This document shows positions 14,632 to 15,550 of a stretch of 61,526 nucleotides of DNA, in pieces (position 1 is the stretch's first letter; every line of letters begins with the position of its first letter). The position numbers and the translations under genes are program-made. The notes beneath the pieces were generated by a model. It was not told the DNA's origin, did not search any database, and saw only the letters and a list, made by a program, of their open reading frames with translations. This DNA is from Escherichia phage PhiR5_2: the sequence record PV340546; one strand, 5' to 3'.

Positions 14632-15306
14632 TCATATAGAGGCTGAATCTGATCTTTTTTGTTCACGTCTGGCTTCCACCATTGCAGGCAGAGTGAAGGC
14701 GTAGACTAAAAACATTTCGGTAAAACTCAGGATCTGGCTTGCCTCAATTGGTGTGAAAACTTCATCTGTATGAACTGCTTTATTGGCATCAATTCGTACA
14801 ATATGAGCCCATTCCTTCATCTGTTCAGTGATCAGGCCTTTTTTGTAAATCATCTGAATACGTTGCGACAGCGATTCTTTTCCTGCTTCATCGCCGAGCA
14901 GTTTTTTCGTGGAGATATCGAGGACTCTGCGACAAAGAATAACCACTGTGTCGTACCGCCTCCTCTGTAAATCCTCTTTTGCCTCAACAAAAGTACGGTC
15001 TGCAACCGGGGGCGTATATTCTGGTGCGGTAATTTTTTTGACCACAGGATAGATCTTGCGGAAACGGTACTGGCTATTTCCTGAAATCAGAATATCGAGG
15101 TCTTTTTTCTGGCTTTCCGCCATGGGACCGTGATAGTGGTCTGATGGGATTTCAACAATAGCAACACCTCCTCGATGACAACTTCTGCATACAAAAGCGA
15201 CGTTAAAAAAAGGTGTTTTTTCAATTTGTTTTTCGGCAAATGCCTCAATAACAGCTCGCTCTTTTAAACAGTGCGGGCATGTGATATCAAAGGAGACTAA
15301 ACCCAT
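14632..15306 (-). CDS. Zn-ribbon plus DUF4145-like protein (candidate abortive-infection/defence protein)
   Basis: Internal Met (M25) with GAGGA RBS; CPHC...CRSC ribbon; C-terminal LSQRIQMIYKKGLITEQMKEWAHIVRIDANKAVH resembles the DUF4145 signature; counter-oriented to neighbouring phage genes. Confidence 0.6.
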   Translation of the reverse strand: MGLVSFDITCPHCLKERAVIEAFAEKQIEKTPFFNVAFVCRSCHRGGVAIVEIPSDHYHGPMAESQKKDLDILISGNSQYRFRKIYPVVKKITAPEYTPPVADRTFVEAKEDLQRRRYDTVVILCRRVLDISTKKLLGDEAGKESLSQRIQMIYKKGLITEQMKEWAHIVRIDANKAVHTDEVFTPIEASQILSFTEMFLVYAFTLPAMVEARREQKRSDSASI

Positions 15307-15550
15307 GGATATTCCTCGCGAAATTAAAGAAATTAACGAAATCATTGAGGTTACTGATCGCCCCGAGTTTACCCTCATGCGTCGTTATGAAACAGGAACC
15401 GACGAACAAAAATACATCATGGTTGCAGCATTGGCTGTGATGGCGATAGAAAGGGAGCGAAGGGAAAAGGACGTAATGGTTATTCCTGAGAGAAATGATT
15501 CACCGGATTTGAGATGGCAGGAGCCGGAGTGGGATGTGGTAATCCGGTGA
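15305..15550 (+). CDS. small acidic hypothetical protein
   Basis: 81 aa from an internal Met with AAGGAG RBS; divergent from 14632-15306, the two start codons sharing a CATG. Confidence 0.3.
   Translation: MDIPREIKEINEIIEVTDRPEFTLMRRYETGTDEQKYIMVAALAVMAIERERREKDVMVIPERNDSPDLRWQEPEWDVVIR

Follow-up and report, generated by a model that had tools for sequence, protein, structure and literature searches.

A prophage-borne candidate abortive-infection RNase distantly related to RAZR, and its head-to-head small open reading frame, in Escherichia phage PhiR5_2

Introduction

RAZR (ring-activated zinc-finger RNase) is a single-gene defence system of E. coli UMB1727 that was discovered as PD-T7-4 (Vassallo et al. 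2022; PMC9519451) and renamed in February 2026 (Zhang et al., Nature 2026; PMC13017515; PDB 9Y9C and 9Y6U). Its N-terminal Cys4 zinc-finger domain is joined by a linker (residues 66-79) to a C-terminal DUF4145 domain, which is a divergent HEPN RNase with the catalytic residues R146 and H154; defence is abolished by both R146A and H154A. RAZR acts by abortive infection and is not toxic alone or when overproduced. It is activated when 24 copies assemble around ~170 Å rings of Erf-like recombinase or portal proteins, and the activated enzyme cleaves single-stranded RNA. The linker is needed for complex formation, and the zinc-finger domain is the most variable part of the protein and determines phage specificity (PMC13017515). 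The current study examines a gene of comparable layout at positions 14632-15306 (minus strand) of a 61,526-nucleotide stretch of Escherichia phage PhiR5_2 (sequence record PV340546; hereafter the window, meaning this whole stretch), together with a small open reading frame (ORF) whose start codon overlaps that of the gene. This RAZR-like gene, which is carried by a prophage, probably codes for a distant member of the RAZR superfamily and, by analogy with RAZR, for a candidate abortive-infection RNase that would be expressed in the lysogen.

DUF4145 was assigned to the HEPN superfamily in 2013, with 'Zinc Ribbon' among its listed fusions (Anantharaman et al.; PMC3710099), and the layout seen here was solved as RAZR in 2026 (PMC13017515); the remark in a first-pass annotation of the window that DUF4145 has no assigned mechanism was therefore out of date. 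Several other HEPN proteins share part of this design. DS-38 (HEP2, WP_001313577.1), validated in the DefensePredictor study (bioRxiv 10.1101/2025.01.08.631726; PMC13092281), is likewise an E. coli accessory defence protein joining a zinc finger to a HEPN domain, but its gene has 1101 nt and encodes ~366 aa, and identity of the two proteins was rejected on this ground. DS-38 aligns with PD-T7-4 in the HEPN domain only, and its authors suggested a distinct mechanism (PMC13092281). The BREX-associated protein BxaP (PMC10799925) has a DUF4145-type HEPN domain and a defence context in common with the RAZR-like protein but carries DUF4145 at its N terminus, followed by a HEAT-like C terminus, while other DUF4145 fusions differ in involving restriction endonuclease and helicase modules (PMC3710099). 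The HEPN-MNT toxins (HEPT, 5YEP; Aphanizomenon HEPN, 7AE6/7AE2) are without a zinc ribbon and are neutralised by an MNT nucleotidyltransferase from the same operon, whereas the present locus has no MNT and its small neighbour gene is divergent.

Results and Discussion

Domain architecture of the RAZR-like protein

The RAZR-like gene comprises 224 codons and a stop and is annotated by the Prokaryotic Genome Annotation Pipeline (PGAP) as a 'DUF4145 domain-containing protein' (WP_032144013.1). As a mechanical ORF it extends upstream to 15378 (248 aa); the ATG at 15306 is the start used in PGAP, in RefSeq and in the homologues aligned here, except for one 245-aa sequence with an N-terminal extension. 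The gene has its own ribosome-binding site, as the first-pass annotation had stated: a Shine-Dalgarno sequence, GAGGAA (15312-15317, minus strand), lies 5 nt ahead of the ATG. Residues 118-197 match PF13643 (DUF4145; clan CL0291, KNTase_C) at E = 3.9e-9, with 36.9 bits against a cut-off of 23.1, so the DUF4145 signature named in the first-pass annotation is a real Pfam match. The protein also matches PHROG 1305 (E = 1.3e-63), and PF13643 was present in all 83 homologues examined (212-225 aa, nearly all from Enterobacterales). An exhaustive profile search gave 3325 cluster representatives at E <= 1e-3, of which 208 reached E <= 1e-30, with full-length relatives in most of the best 150 clusters listed; the gene is thus not the orphan it had been called.

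Conservation was judged in two alignments, one of 37 homologues (A1) and one of 111 representatives of 50%-identity clusters (A3). Residues 1-52 (15151-15306, minus strand) make up an N-terminal Cys4 zinc ribbon with the CPHC (10-13) and CRSC (40-43) pairs noted earlier, and C10 (15277-15279), C13 (15268-15270), C40 (15187-15189) and C43 (15178-15180) are invariant in A1 and at least 90% conserved in A3. The ribbon profile matches those of RPB9, RPA12 and TFIIS, including 1QYP, and also residues 14-54 of the RAZR zinc-finger domain; the RAZR authors likewise compared their ribbon with those of RPB9, TFIIS and 1QYP (PMC13017515). The ribbon is followed (15010-15150, minus strand) by a variable extension (residues 53-86) and a conserved proline-rich linker (P87, A94-P95, P99), in which P87, P95 and P99 are invariant in A1 and A94-P95 is conserved; both HMMER and hhalign align this linker with RAZR residues 63-79. 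The C-terminal HEPN (DUF4145) domain spans residues 100-224 (14635-15009, minus strand) and contains the predicted catalytic motif R171-x3-N175-x3-H179 (14770-14796, minus strand), whose R-x7-H spacing equals that of R146 and H154 in RAZR. All three motif residues are invariant in A1 and at least 90% conserved in A3, and their counterpart in 9Y9C is 'RIVGNQAVH'.

The AlphaFold2 model of the protein (mean predicted local distance difference test score, pLDDT, 89.5; predicted template modelling score 0.77) consists of a beta ribbon, with strands at residues 4-6, 20-27, 33-40 and 46-52, the extension, and a helical C-terminal domain. The sole low-confidence part is residues 173-179, within the R171-H179 motif. 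Fold comparison assigned the C-terminal domain to the HEPN fold, bearing out the HEPN-like fold that had been proposed; the matches include 5yep and 7ae2 as well as HepS (PDB 9oik), listed as bound to the lambda J tail tip. Mean pairwise distance among homologues was 0.34 in the HEPN domain, 0.52 in the ribbon and 0.67 in residues 59-99, the most variable part.

Relationship to RAZR

The RAZR-like protein resembles RAZR in being a single polypeptide of ~220 aa with a CPHC-starting Cys4 ribbon, a conserved linker and a DUF4145/HEPN domain with R-x7-H; in both, the sensor domain is the most variable part, and homology at the profile level runs across both domains. The best PDB sequence for the A3 profile was 9Y9C chain OA (E = 1.7e-6), matched in two collinear stretches, the ribbon (residues 6-44 to 14-54, CPHCG...C.HCG) and the linker plus HEPN domain (77-174 to 63-157). 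The ribbon comparison with RAZR is that of this A3/9Y9C alignment, and the ribbon part of the match is weak (7.3 bits). An hhalign comparison of A1 with the RAZR-clade alignment gave 94.1% and E = 1.3e-7 over 124 columns, and the PADLOC model for PD-T7-4 was matched by 64 of the 111 A3 representatives (best E = 1.8e-11). The DUF4145 match and the collinear homology to the validated RAZR together support the suggestion of the first-pass annotation that this is a candidate defence or abortive-infection protein.

The relationship is distant. Sequence comparison places the RAZR-like protein in what appears to be a separate, divergent clade of the RAZR/PD-T7-4 superfamily rather than among close members of the family, and suggests that the PADLOC model for PD-T7-4 does not recognise with confidence a clade that has the RAZR architecture. 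The differences from RAZR include the remote sequence similarity and a longer N-terminal domain. In addition, and unlike RAZR, the window clade is found mostly in prophage and viral contigs, at fixed insertion sites and counter-oriented to the flanking operon, and most of its members carry the start-overlapping small ORF, of which the RAZR paper makes no mention. A database search with the RAZR 66-161 fragment returned only proteins of up to 168 aa. One of the proteins from this search (P0086) is a shorter variant that adjoins an integrase and has no small partner. The 168-aa E. coli proteins (L003 6001-6507 and L005 4087-4593) are 85% identical to RAZR 66-161, have the second CxxC only and adjoin a phage-type integrase gene; these RAZR relatives may be truncated or alternative-start variants.

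Distribution and orientation

The same gene is carried by two Shigella phages (75/02 Stx and POCJ13) and by Escherichia phage PhiR12_3, and relatives are encoded on 101 IMG/VR stretches. Among complete E. coli genomes it is an infrequent accessory gene, with 37 carriers out of 5426. In the window it runs against the rightward genes for O-like, DnaC-like, DUF1627, DUF977 (Ren-like), Ant, NinB, NinE and RusA proteins, and these neighbouring gene calls confirm the orientation against the early operon that had been described. The same holds in the other elements: every backbone gene detected by similarity to window genes lies on the strand opposite the RNase gene, as do the called flanking genes, the exception being baseplate genes in one flank of a single locus (L157). 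In Klebsiella and Citrobacter elements, genes for Acb2/Tad1-hairpin proteins (anti-CBASS/anti-Thoeris sponges) and CAP12-PCTIR TIR proteins lie ~1.3-2.3 kb from the pair (L149 786-1070, L152 777-1070, L157 5313-6074), which suggests defence and counter-defence neighbourhoods.

A small ORF overlapping head to head

The small partner ORF (15305-15550, plus strand; PGAP coding sequence WP_001624507.1) encodes 81 aa and is co-oriented with the early-right operon. As the first-pass annotation had observed, the two divergent start codons share a CATG (15304-15307), where they overlap by 2 nt. Each Shine-Dalgarno sequence lies inside the other gene: that of the small ORF, AAGGAG (15290-15295, plus strand), falls within codons 4-6 of the RAZR-like gene, and that of the RAZR-like gene within codons 3-5 of the small ORF. 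A small partner ORF of a RAZR-type RNase is absent from the literature examined and is the new element here.

The small protein matches phrog_8371 (E = 6.8e-56) and has homologues of 54-93 aa with the core motif ~RPEFTLMQRYE...QK...ALIGKLIEQDR, in which P20, E21, L24 and I48 are invariant (alignments A2 and A4). AlphaFold2 predicts a three-helix core (residues 1-57; pLDDT >90 for 1-55) followed by a disordered acidic tail, and the ratio of nonsynonymous to synonymous substitution rates (dN/dS) is 0.3-0.6. Family and fold searches, including those for MNT and other antitoxin families, gave no match. The acidity that had been noted holds for the window copy (isoelectric point, pI, 4.6) but not for the family, whose pI ranges from 4.5 to 10; an acidic antitoxin or DNA mimic as a family trait was rejected on this basis.

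The identical 2-nt start overlap (offset +1) was found in 43 distinct pairs of RNase gene and small ORF from other loci, within which the RNases diverge down to 37% identity and the small proteins to about 20-50%. Searches seeded with the small ORF only found the RNase gene adjacent in 30 of 31 and 13 of 13 viral contigs. For 42 pairs, the 1.5-kb flanks were compared by their longest ORFs, which formed 17 unrelated clusters at one end of the pair and 26 at the other. In prophages of E. coli, Proteus and Yersinia, the pair has replication genes to one side and NinB to the other; in those of Klebsiella it stands between the lysis genes and terminase-like ones, and in Citrobacter phages it separates an ssDNA-binding gene from DNA polymerase A. 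The possibility that the small ORF is merely a backbone nin gene was rejected as the sole explanation, since the pair also occurs at lysis/terminase junctions and beside DNA polymerase genes. Distances among small ORFs correlated with those among HEPN domains (r = 0.76) and among ribbons (r = 0.54), a test that was judged uninformative because the ribbon is noisier.

The slot of the RAZR-like gene is also a swap site. In phiSTEC1589-Stx1c (L131 2978-3780) and in L144-L148 it is filled by a 166-aa ORF, and in the phiSTEC1589-Stx1c type the sequence matches the window again from 15309 onwards, right where the small ORF begins. In one viral contig (L129 1356-2908) the slot holds a 347-aa protein and a 169-aa membrane protein. 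These other ORFs may be further defence cargo. In another viral contig (L125 2305-2981), the RAZR-like gene is split into ORFs of 165 and 56 aa, apparently a frameshift pseudogene, and the overlapping small ORF is intact.

Proposed function

The window is a Stx-phage-like prophage with ynfG as its integration site, and its counterpart in E. coli DETEC-S792 is 99.9% identical over the matched stretch. By analogy with RAZR (PMC13017515), the RAZR-like protein would be made from its own promoter in the lysogen and would be inactive there. Upon infection, its variable N-terminal domain would bind a multimeric protein of the incoming phage, bringing the HEPN domains into an active arrangement for non-specific cleavage of single-stranded RNA; translation would then halt, and the infected cell would yield no phage.

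The layout of the locus further suggests how the enzyme might be restrained during the prophage's own growth. The 5' ends of the two genes overlap, so each promoter must lie within or beyond the other gene. On induction of the prophage, the early-right transcript would pass antisense through the entire RNase gene before the small ORF is translated. The prophage itself encodes Bet, Exo and Gam, and a 714-aa ORF directly after its terminase gene, labelled hypothetical by PGAP, appears from its position and size to stand at the expected place of the portal gene. Antisense transcription could therefore lower the defence gene just as the prophage's own Bet and portal rings appear, and the layout would favour expression of the RNase in lysogeny and its reduction during lytic growth. 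As for the small three-helix protein, it may be a functional partner of the RNase of some kind, either a regulator or an inhibitor, at somewhat less than even odds. The more specific proposal, that it is an inhibitor expressed from the lytic operon that spares the prophage from suicide triggered by its own rings, and that copies without an RNase gene act as anti-RAZR counter-defence, is rather unlikely.

Alternative explanations

Several observations weigh against the assignment to the RAZR superfamily or against a role for the small ORF in restraining the enzyme. With regard to the former, phmmer with the RAZR-like protein found no match among PDB sequences at E <= 10, so RAZR is reached by profiles only; the PADLOC PD-T7-4 model gave the protein itself no more than E = 0.0022 (15.5 bits), the narrow A1 profile reached 9Y9C_OA at E = 0.13 only, and 9Y9C was not among the matches that Foldseek listed for the protein. 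The N-terminal domain is also about 20-25 residues longer than that of RAZR, which may mean a different trigger and a different ring geometry. In addition, the own promoter called for in the lysogen lacks a convincing sigma-70 candidate in the consensus and weight-matrix scans: the former found no promoter for the RAZR-like gene in 15307-15604, and the latter, run on 43 loci, found no consistently placed strong one and only a weak GTTTCA-16-TAAACT site, ending 59 nt before the ATG. As for the small ORF, RAZR is non-toxic alone, so an inhibitor is not strictly needed. A sister clade of 212 aa has no small ORF and is divergent from terminase small-subunit-like genes, and in a few main-clade members the small ORF is decayed or lost. 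Conversely, phiSTEC1589-Stx1c and many E. coli contigs carry the small ORF, at 91-93% identity, but lack the RNase gene; L129 likewise has a small ORF and no RNase gene.

The gene could accordingly be a self-sufficient, single-gene RAZR-like defence to which the small ORF is functionally unlinked, an explanation given somewhat less than an even chance. The small ORF would then be retained because the two genes have no DNA between them at which recombination could split the pair and because the promoter and ribosome-binding site of the RNase lie inside it. That RAZR acts as a single gene and is harmless by itself fits such an explanation, as do the sister clade without the small ORF and the closely similar small ORFs without an RNase, where homology breaks exactly at the start codon. 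The small ORF is also found in 48 complete E. coli genomes against the 37 with the RNase gene, its protein has no recognisable domain or fold match, and its strongest peptide motif overlies the weak promoter-like site on the other strand. However, the pair is retained although both flanks change (17 and 26 clusters, in at least three kinds of phage module) and although the two proteins have diverged to the extent described above, and the confident, conserved three-helix core with dN/dS below 1 indicates that the small protein is itself under selection. The 'single-gene' label of the first-pass annotation is consequently questionable in the window clade, which nearly always has this conserved small companion, unlike the sister clade. 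A different question is whether the enzyme senses rings at all: it may be a HEPN RNase defence whose N-terminal domain responds to another trigger (a nucleic acid, for instance, or a phage protein in monomeric form), with no 24-mer needed. The 30-35 extra variable residues (53-86) without a RAZR counterpart in the collinear alignment and the weak ribbon similarity lean this way, and HEPN defences do differ in their triggers, as illustrated by HepS with the lambda J tail tip and by the distinct mechanism suggested for DS-38, with its HEPN-only alignment. Given that the alignment with RAZR runs collinearly through ribbon, linker and HEPN domain, that the linker is conserved and that the sensor domain is hypervariable as in RAZR, another trigger is considered rather unlikely, though well worth bearing in mind.

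Two further explanations carry much less weight. Dedicated antitoxins are common for HEPN toxins, and a toxin-antitoxin (TA) or addiction module, in which a constitutively harmful HEPN toxin and a small antitoxin stabilise the prophage rather than defend against other phages, would account for the HEPN toxins among the fold matches (5yep and 7ae2), the conserved pairing and the acidic window copy; a bona fide TA pair also adjoins the locus. Type II TA genes are co-transcribed, whereas divergent genes with overlapping 5' ends cannot share a transcript. This arrangement, the 212-aa clade without the small ORF, the lack of toxicity of overproduced RAZR, the variable charge of the small-ORF family and its failure to match MNT or any other antitoxin family make such a module improbable. 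Finally, a role of the protein in regulating the prophage, as a zinc ribbon that binds DNA, is very improbable: nothing other than the 'DNA binding protein' label of phrog_1305 and of NC_029120 gp19 points in that direction, while an enzyme is indicated by the conserved R-x3-N-x3-H motif, by the HEPN fold and by homology to an RNase, and a Pfam search of the protein found neither a helix-turn-helix (HTH) nor another DNA-binding family. A prophage-borne candidate abortive-infection RNase of the RAZR superfamily thus remains the preferred assignment.

Other features of the prophage

The TA pair that the first-pass annotation had placed beside the gene is a Gp49/HigB-like toxin and an HTH antitoxin (15605-16364, minus strand), on the same strand as the RAZR-like gene. 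In the 153-aa toxin ORF (15903-16364, minus strand), the Pfam Gp49 domain covers residues 59-147 and PHROG 2523 residues 46-153. The toxin is called at 76 aa by PGAP (start 16133) and at 87 aa in the RefSeq phage record; a start at M41 (16244) would give 113 aa and accommodate the domain, and the public start annotation is probably wrong.

Two GC-rich hairpins, neither with a T-run, flank the pair: GCGCCG-9 nt-CGGCGC (15572-15592), between the stops of the small ORF and the HigA-like gene, and CCCCGTC-6 nt-GACGGGG (14589-14608), across the DUF977 stop and just before the stop of the RAZR-like gene. A terminator scan reported neither of them. Further upstream, the O-like gene (11527-12609, plus strand) encodes five Glu-Gln pairs in a row (SSQEQEQEQEQERD, at ~11992-12024), which implies a short 6-nt tandem repeat in the DNA. 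Lambdoid O genes contain the origin region, and this repeat may be linked to it. Downstream of the gene for the Q-like antiterminator is an ORF-poor region of ~1.4 kb (19597-21046). The post-Q position usually holds tRNA and toxin genes in Stx phages; ARAGORN found zero tRNA genes across the whole window.

Conclusions

RAZR is a newly solved form of immunity that is triggered by supramolecular assembly, and the spread of such an enzyme and the means of its restraint are key questions. The clade with RAZR architecture described here is large, and its members reside mostly in prophage and viral contigs of Enterobacterales, among them E. coli and Shigella phages of the Stx type. With a ring sensor on board, a prophage must escape triggering by its own portal and recombinase rings, and the layout of this cassette suggests one way in which it may do so. 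The small ORF is a concrete candidate regulator or inhibitor of an enzyme of the RAZR type. If the small ORF is irrelevant, what is left is one more ordinary member of an already known defence family. If it does act as an inhibitor, it would be the first protein found to partner an RNase of the RAZR type in nature, the RNase-less copies in some E. coli Stx-type phages would counter the RAZR-type defence of resident prophages, and the head-to-head overlap would build 'defence on in lysogeny, off in lysis' into a mobile two-gene cassette.

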